Assembly: GCA_963833055.1 (NCBI GenBank)
Contig: CAWHWM010000004.1
Coordinates: forward strand, 324,006-388,005
Length of the DNA stretch: 64,000 nucleotides
DNA from: Candidatus Dormiibacterota bacterium
GTDB lineage: Bacteria; Chloroflexota; Dormibacteria; Aeolococcales; Aeolococcaceae
Direction of reading: 5' to 3'
Shown: positions 4,668 to 64,000 of the stretch, in pieces
Position numbering within the stretch: the first letter of the stretch is position 1
Layout of the letters: the number at the start of each line of letters is the position of its first letter
The notes under the pieces: model-generated
Told to the model about the DNA's origin: nothing
The model's database searches: none
What the model saw: the letters and a program-made list of their open reading frames with translations, nothing else
Position numbers and translations under genes: made by a program

Positions 4668-5958
4668 GATCGGAGCCGTGCCTCTGGTCCCCCGCGGCGA
4701 GCGCTCCAGGCCCATCGGGCTGATCGGCGTGCTCGTCCTCTCGGCCCTGGGAGCTGCCTGCGCGACGGTCGCGGCGGCCGGCCCCGTGCCGTTCCGGGTG
4801 GGGGCGATCTTCCCGCTCTCCGGGGCCACCGCGCCCGATTCGACGGACGAGTACCTGGGCGCCACGCTCGCCGCGCAGATGGCGAACGCCCAGGGCGGCG
4901 TCAACGGGCACCCGATCTCACTCGACCTCCGCGACGTCGAGGATCAGGCGCAGATTCCCGCCGCGGTGTCGAGCCTGAAGGCGGATGGAGTTCCTGCCGT
5001 TATTGGCGCGTACTCGTCGCAGCTCTCGATTCCGGCGGCGGCGGCGGTGTCGGCGGCCGGGATGGTGTACTGGGAGACGGGCGCCGTGGCCGATCGGGTC
5101 ACCGGACAGGGCTCTCCGCTCATCTTCCGCGTCGGCGTGAACGGTGCCGAGCTGGGAGCCAACGCGGGGAAGTTCATGATCGACGAGCTCGTGCCGCGCA
5201 TGGGGATCCCCGTCAGCAAGATTCGCGTCTACTTCGTCACAGCCGATGATGACTACGGCACGTCTGTGGCGAACGCGACGCGCACGGCGCTCGAAGCCGG
5301 TGGGATGACCATCAGCGGCAAGTCGCTGTACAACCCGTACACGCCGAACTGGGCGCCGGTGATGCATGCGCTCGCAGTCGAGAAGCCGGACATCCTCGTG
5401 CTCTCGTCACACATCCAGGACGGCATCGCATTCCGGCGCGCGTTCCTTGCCGCAGGGCTCCAGGTCAAGGTCTTCATGGGCACCACCATGGCGCAGTGCG
5501 ACCAGGACTTCGGCAACGTGCTGGGTGCGGGCGCCGTCGGCGTGTTCGCCTCGGATCGCCCGCAGGGAGACTTCAACCCCGGCGCGCTCGACCCCCAGGC
5601 CCGCTCGCTGTACAACCGCTTCGCGGCCCTCTGGAAGCAGCGCACCGGTCAGTCCTCTCCGGACGAGGAGGGGATCGCCGGTTTCAGCGCCGCATGGGTG
5701 CTCTTCGCCGACGTGCTCGGCAAGACCGGCAATGACAGCGCCCAGGGCATCGCCGCGACGGCACGCGCGCTCGACCTCCCGAGCGGCAGCCTCCCGAACG
5801 GCGGCGGCGTGCTCTTCTCGACGGCAGCGGGCCAGCTCGGCCAGAACATCAGGGCCGCTGCAGTGGTGTGGCAGTGGCAGGCGCCGCGTGTCAGCGTGGT
5901 GGTCTGGCCGCCGGTGTACGCGACCGGTCAGGTGAAGCTCTCGCTGCCCGAAGGATGA
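4654..5958 (+). CDS. Branched-chain amino acid-type ABC substrate-binding protein
   Basis: [23 protein letters not shown] motifs of LivJ/K-like periplasmic binding proteins; start uncertain. Confidence 0.8.
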
Positions 5959-59146: not shown

Positions 59147-60092
59147 GTGCCTCCGGTCTTCGTGCTCATTCACAGCTCGAGCGTCGGGCCGTCCACGTGG
59201 GAGCCCGTTGCCGGTGCGTTGCGAGCTCGGGGGCACGTGGTCGAAGTTCCGTCCATGCTCGGTTTTGTGGAGGACGGGCCGCCGTACGCGGACTCCTACC
59301 TCCGCCGTGCGAGCGCAGCGCTGGAGTCGCTGCCGCCTGGCGCGCCGATCGTCCTCGTCGGTCACAGCAACGCGGGGCTCTTTCTCCCGGCCATCGCAGA
59401 GCCCCTCGCTCCGCGTGGCGTGTCCTTCATATTCGCTGACGCGTCGATCCCGCCCATCGACGGCGCGGATAGGGAAAGACCCCGCAGACACCACCACGGA
59501 GCCCGCAGACACCGCCGACCCAGCGGACGCCACTAACGCACCACTCGTCCCCGAGGCGTTCCTGGATCAGCTTCGGGCCATGGCGGTCGACGGGATCCTG
59601 CCGCGCTGGGGCAACTGGTGGCCGGACGACATCACCGCGACCCTCTACCCAGACACCGCGACCCGCGAGCGGGTCGCGGCCGAGGAGCCCGAGCTCCCTA
59701 TCGCCTTCTACGAGGAATCAGTGATCGTCCCGGCCGGATGGTCGCGACGTCCGTGCGCCTATCTCCGGTTCAGCGACGCCTACGAGGCGGAAGCCGAGAA
59801 GGCCAGACGCCTTCACTGGCCAACGCTCCATGTCGCCGGCGAGCATCTGCACATGCTCGTCGACCCAACCGGCGTCGCCAACGGAATCTGCGACCTCGCC
59901 GAAAAGCTCAATCCGGGAATTGCCCCCCAGGAAGTCGTAGACGCCACAGACAAGCGGTGTTACGGTTGCGCAGCTTCAGCGGTCCACACTGACCGCGGCG
60001 CACAGGGCCTCGTCCAGAAGGTGCAGTGGCGAGGCCCTGTCCGTGTCTCCAGGGTTGCGGAGACCAGGCAAATCCGACGGTCTCGGGATTAG
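59147..60092 (+). CDS. Alpha/beta hydrolase (frameshift near 59465; true 3' end uncertain, likely near 59910)
   Basis: VLIHSSSVGPSTW, VGHSNAG, EHLHMLVDP. Confidence 0.7.
59938..59966 (+). promoter_or_regulatory. Distal promoter upstream of ftsA
   Basis: TAGACG-17 nt-TACGGT with extended TG. Confidence 0.55.
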
Positions 60093-60134
60093 AGCCGCGA
60101 ATGGCCCCGAGCGGCCGTCCGACCTCTCGAGGAC

Positions 60135-60182
60135 AACCAACATGTTGTGGCATACTGGGGGCGCGAACCCAGCATCTTGCGG
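60135..60182. promoter_or_regulatory. Tandem NrdR boxes flanking an extended -10
   Basis: AACCAACATGTTGTGG (60135) and ACCCAGCATCTTGCGG (60167), 32 bp start-to-start; TG-G-CATACT at 60148-60156. Confidence 0.7.
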
Positions 60183-60200
60183 TTTTGCGCCTGAAAACCC

Positions 60201-60229
60201 TTGAATGGCGCAGCCGCGACGGCTACACT
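60201..60229 (+). promoter_or_regulatory. Proximal ftsA promoter
   Basis: TTGAAT-17 nt-TACACT. Confidence 0.6.
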
Positions 60230-60243
60230 CGGAGACCGATACA

Positions 60244-61479
60244 GTGACCCGTCCTCGCCGCGTCTTCGCACTCGATCTCGGAACTACCAAAGTCTGCTGC
60301 GCGGTAGCAGACCTTGAGACCACCGGTCTCCGAGTCTTGGGCGTCGGTCTGGTGGCTTCCCGGGGCGTTCGCAAGGGCGCGGTGGTCGAGATCGACCGGG
60401 CAGCCGAGGCGGTGGCGGAAGCGGTCGACATGGCTGAGCAGATGTCCGGGGTGCCGATCAACTCCGCGGTGGTCGGGATCGCCGGCGGCCACATCACCTC
60501 GCAGAACAGCCGTGGCGTGGTGGCGGTCGAGGCGGGGCATCGCGAGGTTCGCGACCAGGACGTGCATCGAGCCATCGACGCGGCTCGCGCGGTGAGCGTT
60601 CCGTCGGAGCGCCGCATCGTGCACGTGCTGCCGCAGCAGTTCACGATCGACGGTCAGGAAGGCGTGCGCGACGCCATCGGCATGGCGGGCAACAGGCTCG
60701 AAGTGGATGCGCACATCATCACCGGCGCCAACACTGCGATCCAGAATGTGGTCAAGGTTGTCCACAAGGCAGGGCTCAACGTGGACGACATGGTGCTGCA
60801 GGTGCTCGCGTCTGCGGAGGCGGTGGTGACCGAGGACGAGATCGAGCGCGGTGTGGTCGTCGTCGATGTCGGCGGCGGGACAAGCGATATCGCAGTGTTC
60901 GCGCGCGGCAGCATCGTGCACACGAGCGTGATTCCGGTGGGCGGCAATCACGTCACGGCAGACCTCGCGGTCGGGCTCCGCTGCGACCTCGAGACCGCAG
61001 AGACGGTGAAGCGCAACTTCGGCCACTGCCTGCAGCTCACACTGCCCGCCGACGCGGAGGTGACGTTGACCCCGATGGGCTATGACGAGCCGGTCGGTGT
61101 GCCGCAACGGTATCTCGCTGAAATCATCGGACCGCGCGCACGTGAGATGGCGTCCATGATCGCCGCGGAAGTGGAGCGCGCTGGACCGCTCGGCATGTTC
61201 CCCGGTGGCATCGTGATCACCGGCGGCGGCGCATTGTTGCGCGGCTTCGCGGAAGTCGTGCAACAACAGACCAACCTTCCTGCGCGCATTGCCGCGCCGC
61301 AGGGATTGCAGGGCATGAACGACGAGATTCGCGGCCCGAGCCACGCAACGGTGGTCGGGCTCTTGCGCTGGGGAGCTCGGAGCAACCTCGGCCGCAAACC
61401 CTCACGCTCCAACGGCAAGAGCTCGGACGGAACGGCCGCCGGGATCAAACTCTCGAGGTGGTTTCGTGACCTCTTTTGA
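60244..61479 (+). CDS. ftsA: Cell division protein FtsA
   Basis: [22 protein letters not shown]-terminal amphipathic [10 protein letters not shown]. Confidence 0.97.
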
Positions 61480-61591
61480 TCATCTGCGCACACACGGACT
61501 CGACCAGCCGGGGGATGCCCTGGCCCGCCGGAGATCGTCCTCCACTTCGCCCCCAACCCGTGAATCCACAACCCAACGCGAGGAGACAGGA

Positions 61592-62698
61592 ATGGCAGAC
61601 CTCGACCGGACACTTGACGGCAACGCCCGCATCCGCGTCGTTGGGGTCGGCGGCGGCGGCAGCAATGCCGTGAACCGCATGATCCGGAGCAACCTCAAGG
61701 GCGTTGAGTTCATCGCGATCAACACCGACCACCAGGCACTCAGCTCTTCGTCGGCGCACCTGAAGATCCGCATCGGCGGCAAGCTGACCCGCGGCCTCGG
61801 CGCCGGCGGCGACCCCCAGAAGGGCCGTGATGCGGCGGAGGAGTCGCGCGACGAGCTGACCAAGGCGCTGGCAGACAGCGACATGGTCTTCATCACCGCC
61901 GGCATGGGCGGCGGCACCGGCACCGGCGCCGCGCCGATCATCGCGGAGATCGCCCGCGAGTCGGGAGCGCTCACGATCGGCGTGGTCACCAAGCCCTTCC
62001 GGTTCGAGGGCCTGCGCCGTCAGAAGTCCGCGGAGGAGGGCATCGCCAACCTCCAGGGCCGGGTCGACACCCTCATCACCATCCCGAACGAGCGGCTGAT
62101 GCAGGTCGTCGACAAGAAGACCCCGATCGGTGATGCGTTCAAGGTCGCCGACGACGTGCTCCGGCAGGGCGTGCAGGGCATCAGCGATCTGATCGTGTTC
62201 CCAGGTTTGATCAACCTCGACTTCGCCGACGTCAAGACGATCATGCAGGGACAGGGCCAGGCGCTCATGGGCATCGGCTTCGGGAGCGGCGATACGCGCG
62301 CAGCCGACGCGGCCAAGGATGCGGTTGCGAGCCCGCTGCTTGAAACCACGATCGCCGGCGCCAAGGGCATCCTGCTCAACGTGACTGGCGGACCGGATCT
62401 CACCCTCTACGAGGTCAACGAGGCGGCGCAGCTGGTGAGCGAGTCGGCCGACGCCGATGCACAGATCATCTTCGGCACCGTCATCGACGAGCACATGAAG
62501 GGCGAGGTGAAGATCACCGTCATCGCCACCGGCTTCACGGGTCAGATCGATGTCATCGGGACGCTGAGCTACGAGCCGTCGGCGCGTCCGGTGGTCTCGG
62601 ATCAGCGGCAGCCCGCGTTCACCGTCGGGGGCAAGCCAACCGGGCCATACAGCGTGGATGACCTGGACATTCCGGCGTTTCTGAGGGACCGTCGGTAG
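61592..62698 (+). CDS. ftsZ: Cell division protein FtsZ
   Basis: [29 protein letters not shown]. Confidence 0.99.
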
Positions 62699-62709
62699 GT
62701 TTGGGCCGG

Positions 62710-62752
62710 GATTGGTTCCGGCGGCCGTCGTGCGGCCGGCCGGAACCGATCC
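62710..62752. other. GC-rich hairpin between ftsZ and nrdR (partial terminator or stabiliser)
   Basis: GGTTCCGGC-GGCCG...CGGCC-GGCCGGAACC; no U-tract. Confidence 0.5.
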
Positions 62753-62773
62753 AAGCTCTTAGGGGGCCAGCAC

Positions 62774-63313
62774 GTGAAGTGCCCGTTCTGCGGCGAGACG
62801 GATATCAAGGTCGTCAACTCGCGAGACTCCGAGACCGGTGAGGCGATTCGTCGCCGCCGCGAATGCCTTGGCTGTGGCAAGCGTTTCACCACGTACGAGC
62901 GCGTCGAGGTGCCGCCGCTCTACGTCGTGAAGAAGGACGGCAGGCGCGAGGAGTTCAACCGCGCCAAGCTCCTGTCGGGGCTCGTCGTGGCGGCGAAGAA
63001 GACGCGCCTCGCGCCGGCAAATCTCGAGCAGATGGTTGCCGACATCGAGAACGCGCTGCGGAGCCAGAACCTTTCCGAGGTGCCGAGCCGCGAGGTGGGC
63101 GCGATGGTGATGGCGAGATTGCGCGAGATCGACGAGATCGCGTACATTCGATTCGCTTCGGTGTATCGATCCTTCAAGGACGCGCAGGAGATGCGCGCCA
63201 CCATCGAGGATGTGCTGGCGCATCCTCCTGGCACTCGCCCAGACACTGCCCGCCGGCAGCGTAAGCGCCGCGACACCGAGGGTCGCGAACTGCCCCTCGA
63301 CCTCGGCAAGTAG
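62774..63313 (+). CDS. nrdR: Transcriptional repressor NrdR
   Basis: MKCPFC, IRRRREC..C..RFTTYE, VVKKDGRRE, AYIRFASVY. Confidence 0.97.
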   Translation: MKCPFCGETDIKVVNSRDSETGEAIRRRRECLGCGKRFTTYERVEVPPLYVVKKDGRREEFNRAKLLSGLVVAAKKTRLAPANLEQMVADIENALRSQNLSEVPSREVGAMVMARLREIDEIAYIRFASVYRSFKDAQEMRATIEDVLAHPPGTRPDTARRQRKRRDTEGRELPLDLGK

Positions 63314-63319
63314 GGCGCC

Positions 63320-64000
63320 GTGGCGCAGGACGAGGTCCCGGTTGCGGACCGGCTCCAGGCAGTTCGTGCTCGGATCGACGCCGCCGCGGCGCGTGTGCAC
63401 CGCGATCCGCTCGACATCCTGCTGATTGCCGTGACCAAGGGCGTGCGCGCGGAGCGGGTGGACGAGGCGATCGACGCCGGCGTCGAGGATGTGGGCGAGA
63501 ACCGTGTCCAGGAGGCGTCTGACAAGCAGGGGGAGGTGCGCAACACCGCTCGCTGGCACCTGATCGGGCACCTCCAGACGAACAAGGCAGGTCGCGCGGC
63601 CGCGCTGTTCGACTTCGTCCATTCGGTTGACAGCCGGCGCATTGCCGACGCGCTGTCCTCCCACCGTCCGCCCGGGCTCGACCCCATCGGCGTGCTGCTC
63701 GAGTTGGAATTGACCGGGCAGGCGAACCGCTTCGGTGTGCGCGAGGCCGACGTCGAAGGTCTGGTGCAGCAGCTGGTGAATGTGCCCTTCCTGCACCTGA
63801 TGGGACTGATGACGATCGCTCCGTTCTCCGAGGATCCCGAGGGCGCACGTGCGACCTTCACACGGCTGCGGCATATCCGCGATCACATGGAGCATGTGAC
63901 CGGGTGGGCACTTCCGGAGTTGAGCATGGGCATGAGCAACGACTTCGAAGTCGCAATCGAGGAAGGCTCCACGATGGTGCGGGTCGGCCGGGCCATCTTC
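63320..64000 (+). CDS. yggS: YggS PLP homeostasis protein (3' end outside window)
   Basis: Not in track; LIAVTK, GENRVQE, WHLIGHLQTNK, HSVDS, GLMT, LSMGMSNDFE.AIEEGSTMVRVG. Confidence 0.95.
   Translation, partial: MAQDEVPVADRLQAVRARIDAAAARVHRDPLDILLIAVTKGVRAERVDEAIDAGVEDVGENRVQEASDKQGEVRNTARWHLIGHLQTNKAGRAAALFDFVHSVDSRRIADALSSHRPPGLDPIGVLLELELTGQANRFGVREADVEGLVQQLVNVPFLHLMGLMTIAPFSEDPEGARATFTRLRHIRDHMEHVTGWALPELSMGMSNDFEVAIEEGSTMVRVGRAIF

Follow-up and report, generated by a model that had tools for sequence, protein, structure and literature searches.

A predicted NrdR operator upstream of the division genes ftsA and ftsZ in Dormibacteria

NrdR is present in most bacteria and is treated as a regulator specific to the genes for ribonucleotide reductase (RNR). 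Here we analysed a pair of predicted NrdR boxes that precedes the cell division genes ftsA and ftsZ in an uncultured member of the Dormibacteria. The window, a stretch of 64,000 nucleotides (G000:C4:324006-388005), is part of a 3.39-Mb, 20-contig metagenome-assembled genome (MAG) that is 84% complete. The comparison genomes are MAGs as well, and counts across relatives are not independent of one another. Toward the end of the window ftsA, ftsZ, nrdR and yggS follow one another on one strand, with identities assigned by NCBIfam models (Table 1). A preliminary description of this DNA had placed two 16-bp sites 32 bp apart upstream of ftsA and nrdR two genes downstream of ftsA on the same strand, and both statements hold. 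It was also correct that the window contains no RNR gene; the genome has a single RNR large-subunit match, a class II nrdJ-type gene located on contig C20, and neither a class III RNR gene nor a class I small subunit was found in the 84%-complete MAG. The ftsA start codon that is kept across relatives is the GTG at 60244, as opposed to the ATG at 60205 that begins the longest open reading frame (ORF). The nrdR gene is single-copy in the genome, and its product contains a zinc ribbon with CPFC and CLGC motifs, an ATP-cone and a basic C-terminal tail of about 30 residues. Only 6 nt separate nrdR from yggS, which is followed beyond the window by ileS, rluD and gmk.

Table 1. Genes and predicted control elements at the ftsA-ftsZ-nrdR locus (positions within the window).
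Feature	Position	Strand	Remarks
GC-rich hairpin	60003..60040	+	behind the upstream gene (stop codon 59990-59992)
Predicted NrdR box 1, AACCAACATGTTGTGG	60135..60150	.	all six conserved positions (C4, A6, A8, T9, T11, G13)
Candidate distal extended -10, TG-G-CATACT	60148..60156	+	abuts box 1; CATACT 93 nt upstream of GTG
Predicted NrdR box 2, ACCCAGCATCTTGCGG	60167..60182	.	five of the six conserved positions; A6 replaced by G
T-tract and A-tract, TTTTGCGCCTGAAAACCC	60183..60200	+	between box 2 and the proximal -35
Candidate proximal promoter, TTGAAT (60201-06), 17-nt spacer, TACACT (60224-29)	60201..60229	+	-10 conserved
GGAG, possible Shine-Dalgarno sequence	60231..60234	+	9 nt upstream of GTG
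ftsA	60244..61479	+	TIGR01174, 402.7 bits (cut-off 175.85); start GTGACCCGT conserved
ftsZ	61466..62698	+	TIGR00065, 441.2 bits; 14-nt overlap with ftsA
Strong hairpin without a following T-run	62709..62752	+	in the 75-nt ftsZ-nrdR gap; -48.9 kcal/mol, z = -4.2
nrdR	62774..63313	+	TIGR00244, 187.5 bits (cut-off 124.65); model positions 1-146 of 147
yggS (pyridoxal phosphate-binding protein)	63320..64000, continues past the window end	+	NCBIfam

The accessible text of PMC13584703 defines an NrdR site as two 16-bp boxes that are separated by a linker of 15-16 bp and carry conserved C4, A6, A8, T9, T11 and G13 residues, C4 and G13 being critical. The two boxes upstream of ftsA have a 16-bp linker, giving 32 bp from start to start, and contain C4 and G13 in each box. 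The single departure, A6G in box 2, is a change reported as tolerated; when present in both boxes it lowered the affinity of Streptomyces NrdR 4-fold (PMC13584703). By hand count, the A+T content between C4 and G13 is 6/8 (0.75) in box 1 and 5/8 (0.63) in box 2, within the range of 0.63-1.0 given for native boxes (PMC13584703). The pair lies in intergenic DNA with box 1 starting 109 nt upstream of the ftsA GTG. A third box at 60199-60214, 32 bp downstream of box 2, was rejected by eye, as it contains neither C4 nor G13. The 16-bp boxes, the linker and the conserved positions are shared with the NrdR operators of RNR operons (nrdRJ and nrdAB of Streptomyces coelicolor; nrdAB, nrdHIEF and nrdDG of Escherichia coli), and the ftsA boxes are close to the Streptomyces boxes listed in Table 1 of PMC13584703. 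As in Streptomyces nrdRJ, nrdR is itself within the predicted regulated operon, and a cognate NrdR with zinc ribbon and ATP-cone is encoded. Unlike those operators, which lie at the promoters of RNR operons, the Dormibacteria boxes are followed by ftsA, ftsZ, nrdR and yggS, with no RNR gene.

The whole genome was scanned for two CWANATNTWG cores at spacings of 15-69, counting summed mismatches. With at most one mismatch only 2 matches were obtained, one at ftsA and one upstream of smc, both at spacing 32. When two mismatches were allowed, there were 3 matches at spacing 32 (ftsA, smc and nrdJ) and no more than one at any of the other 54 spacings. A symmetrised weight matrix was also derived; its training set comprised 22 distinct boxes that precede nrdJ or nrdR genes of Dormibacteria and excluded ftsA and smc sites. 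Three of its source loci are from unpublished genomes (G021, G026 and G030). The training boxes were gathered with the same loose consensus, and the matrix is to that extent not fully independent of it. The ftsA pair scored 33.4 bits and ranked first genome-wide, ahead of the genome's own nrdJ pair at 30.7 bits. Box 1 alone scored 19.8 bits, the highest of 3,391,285 genome positions, and box 2 scored 13.6 bits (rank 31). Five pairs in the genome reached at least 26.7 bits, all of them at spacing 32, and the sixth scored 17.9 bits. The comparison with nrd boxes that the preliminary description had proposed as a check therefore placed the ftsA boxes level with or above those of nrdJ. The box pair is far beyond chance expectation, and its sequence match and its uniqueness in the genome are observations.

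One alternative is that the motif is not used by NrdR, being either a chance pair of palindromes or the site of another factor. The operator is predicted from sequence alone, and conserved coding sequence can mimic NrdR boxes, as it does in the Limnocylindrales and Anaerolineales (see below). Against this, the ftsA pair is the best in the genome by a matrix trained on nrd boxes, has the canonical spacing with a score that is unequalled at the 53 other spacings between 16 and 69, and is intergenic, and its pattern of conservation fits the NrdR contact positions. We therefore consider this alternative highly improbable.

Conservation of the boxes was followed outward from the window's genus. The genus is represented by 19 genomes, counting that of the window, and all 19 share the same two box sequences and the order ftsA-ftsZ-nrdR. 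About 70 nt upstream of the boxes and 4-5 bases of the linker vary in these genomes while the boxes stay identical. An FtsA-alignment search gave a set of 80 loci, 37 of which encode an FtsA that is 71-99% identical to that of the window; these family loci probably include genomes of the same species as the genus set, such that the two counts overlap. A pair with spacing 31-33 and at most 3 mismatches was present in 36 of the 37 loci, usually about 103-106 nt upstream of the start codon; the pair of the remaining locus, L051, is weaker and has spacing 32. The nrdR gene lies behind ftsZ in 29 of these loci; the other 8 end before that point. Across 20 distinct regions, information content peaked at C4, A6, A8, T9 and T11-G13 in box 1 and at C4, A8, T9, T11 and G13 in box 2, with low values in the flanks and linker. 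Conservation of the pair is thus an observed property of the family, and the substitutions spare the predicted NrdR contact positions.

Several box-like motifs at other loci were set aside, two of them before ftsA in other Chloroflexota. The motif in Limnocylindrales is the conserved end of an upstream gene for a small protein (...RRHFI, stop), and that in Anaerolineales lies within upstream coding sequence. Pairs in L092 (at +11, inside ftsA) and L104 (after ftsZ) were regarded as chance or coding matches.

A second family of the same order, with FtsA 44-46% identical, was represented by 11 genomes, two of them unpublished. All 11 carry a strong box before ftsA, and 4 of the 11 have a clear pair. 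Five of these genomes were tested for the location of nrdR. In each, ftsA and nrdR are on different contigs and yggS comes after nrdR; four of the five have a separate box pair directly before nrdR. In a more distant member of the Dormibacterota (L087), a box pair stands between ftsA-ftsZ and a downstream nrdR. Boxes, ftsAZ and nrdR thus occur in three arrangements across the Dormibacterota, and ftsA retains its boxes even where nrdR is elsewhere. The conservation in relatives that had been proposed as a test of the prediction extends to relatives in which nrdR is unlinked to ftsAZ.

These arrangements bear on a second alternative, in which the operator serves solely for autoregulation of nrdR, and the intervening ftsA and ftsZ are carried along. 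Autoregulation of nrdR is common (PMC9110341), the L087 pair between ftsZ and nrdR would serve nrdR alone, and adjacency of ftsZ and nrdR is widespread, as in the Anaerolineales loci. However, since the sister family keeps the ftsA boxes despite having nrdR elsewhere with boxes of its own, the site appears to do more than autoregulate. Furthermore, equally strong pairs precede smc and a guaB-like gene that have no nrdR nearby, and a repressor bound at the head of the operon would alter ftsAZ transcription whatever the origin of the site. Autoregulation as the only function is unlikely in our judgement.

Autoregulation as part of the function is a different matter. No box pair precedes nrdR in the window's family. 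In addition, ftsZ and nrdR are separated by just 21-31 nt in four genera, too short a distance for nrdR to have its own promoter. Because of these two features, nrdR is most likely transcribed through ftsZ. On the same grounds, the earlier proposal that NrdR would repress its own gene via the ftsA promoter region appears sound. Most genera of the family have a hairpin in the ftsZ-nrdR gap, of unrelated sequence from genus to genus. The hairpin may be a stability or attenuation element, perhaps one that sets the ratio of ftsAZ to nrdR message.

The remaining high-scoring pairs in the genome place the ftsA operator in a wider setting. At the nrdJ promoter the two boxes are 32 bp apart and lie just past a TTGACG -35 sequence, with box 1 over the -10. 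After removal of four loci whose matches were truncated or split, this pair was seen in all 15 loci of the genus and in 7 of the 11 from the sister family. The smc pair (G000:C5:136344-136391; L118/L119) scored 32.5 bits; its box 2 ends in a TTGACG -35, and the -10 sequence, GACAAT, is 7 nt upstream of the ATG, an arrangement that suggests a leaderless smc message. With one locus at the start of a contig excluded, it was found in all 14 genus loci and in none of the 11 from the sister family, of which two have less than 200 nt of upstream sequence. A further pair (G000:C20:368658-368705; L176, about 2656-2706), with 26.7 bits, lies 30 nt upstream of TGTAGAAT, before a leaderless-looking gene of the IMPDH family (guaB-like, 386 aa) that is followed by the gene for GMP synthase (guaA). 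This suggests NrdR control of guanine nucleotide synthesis. The fifth pair (G000:C20:333011-333058; L175, about 2512-2559) is intergenic, scored 27.5 bits and is located about 140 nt upstream of a gene for a class I S-adenosylmethionine methyltransferase, which is followed by a DUF222-HNH gene. The boxes overlap the -10 at nrdJ and the -35 at smc, which is repressor-type geometry; at the guaB-like gene they have an upstream layout. With pairs at nrdJ, smc, guaB-like/guaA and ftsAZ, NrdR would regulate a small regulon for replication, segregation and division and would not be specific to RNR genes.

Some of the coding sequences concerned are interrupted. The smc ORF of the window's MAG (C5:136423 onward) ends at 775 aa, compared with about 1,194 aa in relatives, and ftsA is split into frames in relatives G006, G010, G012, G015 and G017; both are probably assembly frameshifts. 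In three relatives (L171/G003, L172/G011 and L173/G019) the nrdJ ORF is about 1,370-1,400 aa, versus about 990 aa elsewhere, and the nrdJ match is split at residue ~192-197, which resembles an insertion of the intein type.

Two candidate promoters accompany the ftsA boxes, and we recognise both by their conservation. The preliminary description had noted an extended -10 between the boxes about 90 bp upstream of ftsA. This element is present and TG-G-CATACT is invariant in the genus, but CATACT or close variants (CATGCT, CATCCT) occur in only 8 of the 22 family loci displayed. One of these 8 loci, L051, has a clear TTGACC -35 at 18 nt. A proximal promoter had also been described, and TTGAAT and TACACT are found where it was placed, the -10 being conserved throughout. 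The sequence TA(T/C)ACT is 11-14 nt upstream of the start codon in 21 of the 22 family loci (L051, without a match, was dropped), and 145-199 nt upstream of the aligned ftsA start in the sister family. While the proximal -10 is near consensus, most genera have a poor -35 (for example TTCCGC or TTTCCC) at 17 nt from it. GGTTTTG follows the proximal box in both families, and the conserved T-tract and A-tract are possibly UP-element-like. Since the GGAG sequence is not kept in one clade of the family, where the DNA reads TATACTGCAATGTCAATGTG, it is possible that the proximal promoter gives rise to a very short leader.

The distance between the boxes and the proximal promoter varies in a restricted manner. 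Among 36 loci, the end of the proximal box is separated from the start of the -10 by 41-42 nt in 28, 31 nt in 6, 20 nt in 1 (L049) and 11 nt in 1 (L065), which are steps of about one helical turn. If transcription is assumed to start 7 nt after the -10, the centre of the proximal box would be near -61, -51, -40 or -31. The pair in L065 and L049 is nearer to the ftsA -10 than elsewhere and reaches the -35 region. This phasing derives from perhaps 3-4 independent insertion or deletion events, and the gap in L065 corresponds to a shift by one whole box unit and is hence automatically in phase.

We favour a model in which the boxes are a functional NrdR operator that heads an ftsA-ftsZ-nrdR-yggS transcription unit and mediates dATP-dependent repression of ftsAZ and nrdR, and we assign it a probability of roughly 0.55. 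NrdR with dATP and ATP is the tetrameric DNA-binding form in Streptomyces and E. coli, and we assume the same for Dormibacteria. A tetramer loaded with dATP and ATP would occupy the two boxes, and the division genes as well as nrdR would then be transcribed at a lower level. Conversely, ATP in both nucleotide sites would cause NrdR to leave the DNA. In the window's genus the tetramer would cover the distal extended -10, with box 1 filling the promoter spacer and box 2 over the start region, and it would also be positioned just upstream of the conserved proximal promoter. NrdR binding, cotranscription of the four genes and the direction of the effect are the steps that we infer from the arrangement of boxes, promoters and genes.

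Several findings weigh against this model. The distal -10, which is suited to classic repression, is missing in most genera. In 28 of the 36 loci the box centre would be near -61, outside the core promoter, such that simple occlusion is impossible there. For most relatives, the conserved core promoter, its -35 included, is located downstream of the boxes and is not overlapped by them; this differs from the RNR-operon operators and from the usual geometry of a repressor. In 7 of the 11 sister-family genomes the partner box 32 bp upstream is degenerate but conserved, and according to the accessible text of PMC12051234 and PMC13584703 a single NrdR box is not bound, two being needed. A simple sigma-70 and terminator scan of 59900-64000 returned 0 promoters and 0 terminators, and thus called neither ftsA promoter. 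Finally, four metatranscriptome runs (assembled contigs) were mapped, twelve runs having carried small shares of the stretch. The RNA contigs are short and fall within the ftsA coding region (earliest start 60254), with one at 59936-60035, leaving 60053-60253 uncovered; these contigs are uninformative on transcription starts and operon structure. The preliminary proposal that NrdR represses ftsAZ is thus strengthened by the box scores and their conservation and weakened by the conserved promoter downstream of the boxes and the restriction of the distal -10 to some genera.

The same geometry makes activation from phased upstream positions a serious rival. NrdR would bind the boxes, but the dATP-loaded tetramer would aid RNA polymerase at a promoter with a weak -35, such that division is licensed by sufficient DNA precursors. 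The restriction of the box to -10 distances to steps of about a helical turn is consistent with this possibility, as are the generally poor proximal -35 next to a -10 near consensus and the guaB-like gene, whose boxes are likewise placed upstream of the promoter, at 30 nt from TAGAAT. Halting division at a shortage of deoxynucleoside triphosphates (dNTPs) would also be physiologically sensible. Moreover, Pseudomonas aeruginosa topA, which on the accessible text is the only non-RNR target of NrdR that has been tested, is activated via one upstream box (Crespo et al. 2015, PMC4409342), a precedent that likewise counts against repression. Like ftsA, topA is a non-RNR gene linked to DNA metabolism that has an NrdR box, and mutation of this box alters its expression (PMC4409342). 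The ftsA case differs in that the boxes form a canonical pair, as opposed to the single box of topA, and in that they would act on the divisome. On the other hand, every NrdR site studied structurally or biochemically in the accessible parts of PMC9110341 and PMC13584703 is a repressor site. In addition, the small number of events behind the phasing, the assumed start sites, the overlap of a box with the -35 region in L065 and L049 and the -10-like element inside the operator of the window's genus all argue against activation. We regard activation as possible and well short of probable.

Upstream of the boxes, the GC-rich hairpin at 60003-60040 probably is a terminator that forms the 5′ limit of the ftsA control region. 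The fold of 59990-60065 has a free energy of -40.2 kcal/mol (z = -2.6), with a 10-bp perfect stem (CAGGGCCTCG / CGAGGCCCTG) and a conserved loop. Within the genus this stem is conserved, and it can still be recognised in other genera; Rfam gave no match in 59700-60400, this hairpin included.

Similar pairs were found outside the Dormibacterota. In a MAG of the Blastocatellia (Acidobacteriota; L082) a pair at 5329-5376 is located in the ftsA-ftsZ spacer, around a TG-T-TAGAAT sequence. Relatives of this MAG provided 30 loci, of which 9 carry a pair at spacing 31-33, with up to 3 mismatches allowed, within 450 nt before ftsZ. Pair counts at spacings 31, 32 and 33 were 8, 4 and 2, with 0-3 at most other spacings and side peaks at 14-15, 29, 45 and 62-63 that derive partly from four-box arrays. 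Loci with NrdR-like pairs, some of them as such arrays, are L082, L185, L189, L194, L195, L198, L204 and L207. In two Blastocatellia loci box 1 coincides exactly with the spacer of a TTGGCA-16-TAAAAT promoter, a layout like that of the candidate distal ftsA promoter. Pairs about 900-1040 nt before ftsZ in five loci of the Blastocatellia type were set aside, as they are probably inside ftsA. The Blastocatellia boxes may represent an independent link between NrdR and ftsZ.

A full-text literature search returned no earlier report of NrdR boxes at division genes; an older prediction in RegPrecise or a 2005 Trends in Genetics paper is possible. NrdR is called 'RNR-specific' in PMC9110341, and the published box surveys, as described in the accessible text of PMC13584703, covered only DNA up to 500 nt upstream of RNR operons. 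In the passages of two further papers that mention both subjects, WhiA acts on nrdR (PMC3781837), and NrdR and division are mentioned together in a protein-network figure (PMC4898720).

How the state of replication is relayed to the divisome has long been a question for all but a few model organisms. Caulobacter couples transcription of ftsZ and ftsA to the replication machinery through DnaA and CtrA, which act at the promoters of division genes. The arrangement predicted here is similar in that a replication-linked regulator would act at a division-gene promoter; it differs in that the sensor would be the dATP/ATP state of NrdR, and hence the precursor pool, rather than an initiator protein. 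The ftsA-ftsZ operator, together with the pairs at smc and the genes for GMP synthesis, points to a direct transcriptional link from the DNA-precursor pool to segregation and division. In addition, the variable but phased geometry provides a natural series for studying NrdR action from upstream of a promoter. A broader and more tentative possibility, which we think doubtful, is that NrdR of the Dormibacteria is a master regulator that senses dATP/ATP at nrdJ, guaB-like/guaA, smc, ftsA-ftsZ and nrdR, and that at ftsA it is a class-I-type activator, acting in helical phase from near -61 and -93 on a promoter with a weak -35 to license division by dNTP sufficiency. If this were true, then together with the pairs at ftsZ promoters of some Blastocatellia it would mean that bacteria have repeatedly come to control the divisome by sensing precursors. 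The prediction is easily testable in vitro because NrdR proteins bind heterologous boxes (PMC13584703), and the predicted operator would be the first regulatory handle on this uncultured, slow-growing soil lineage.

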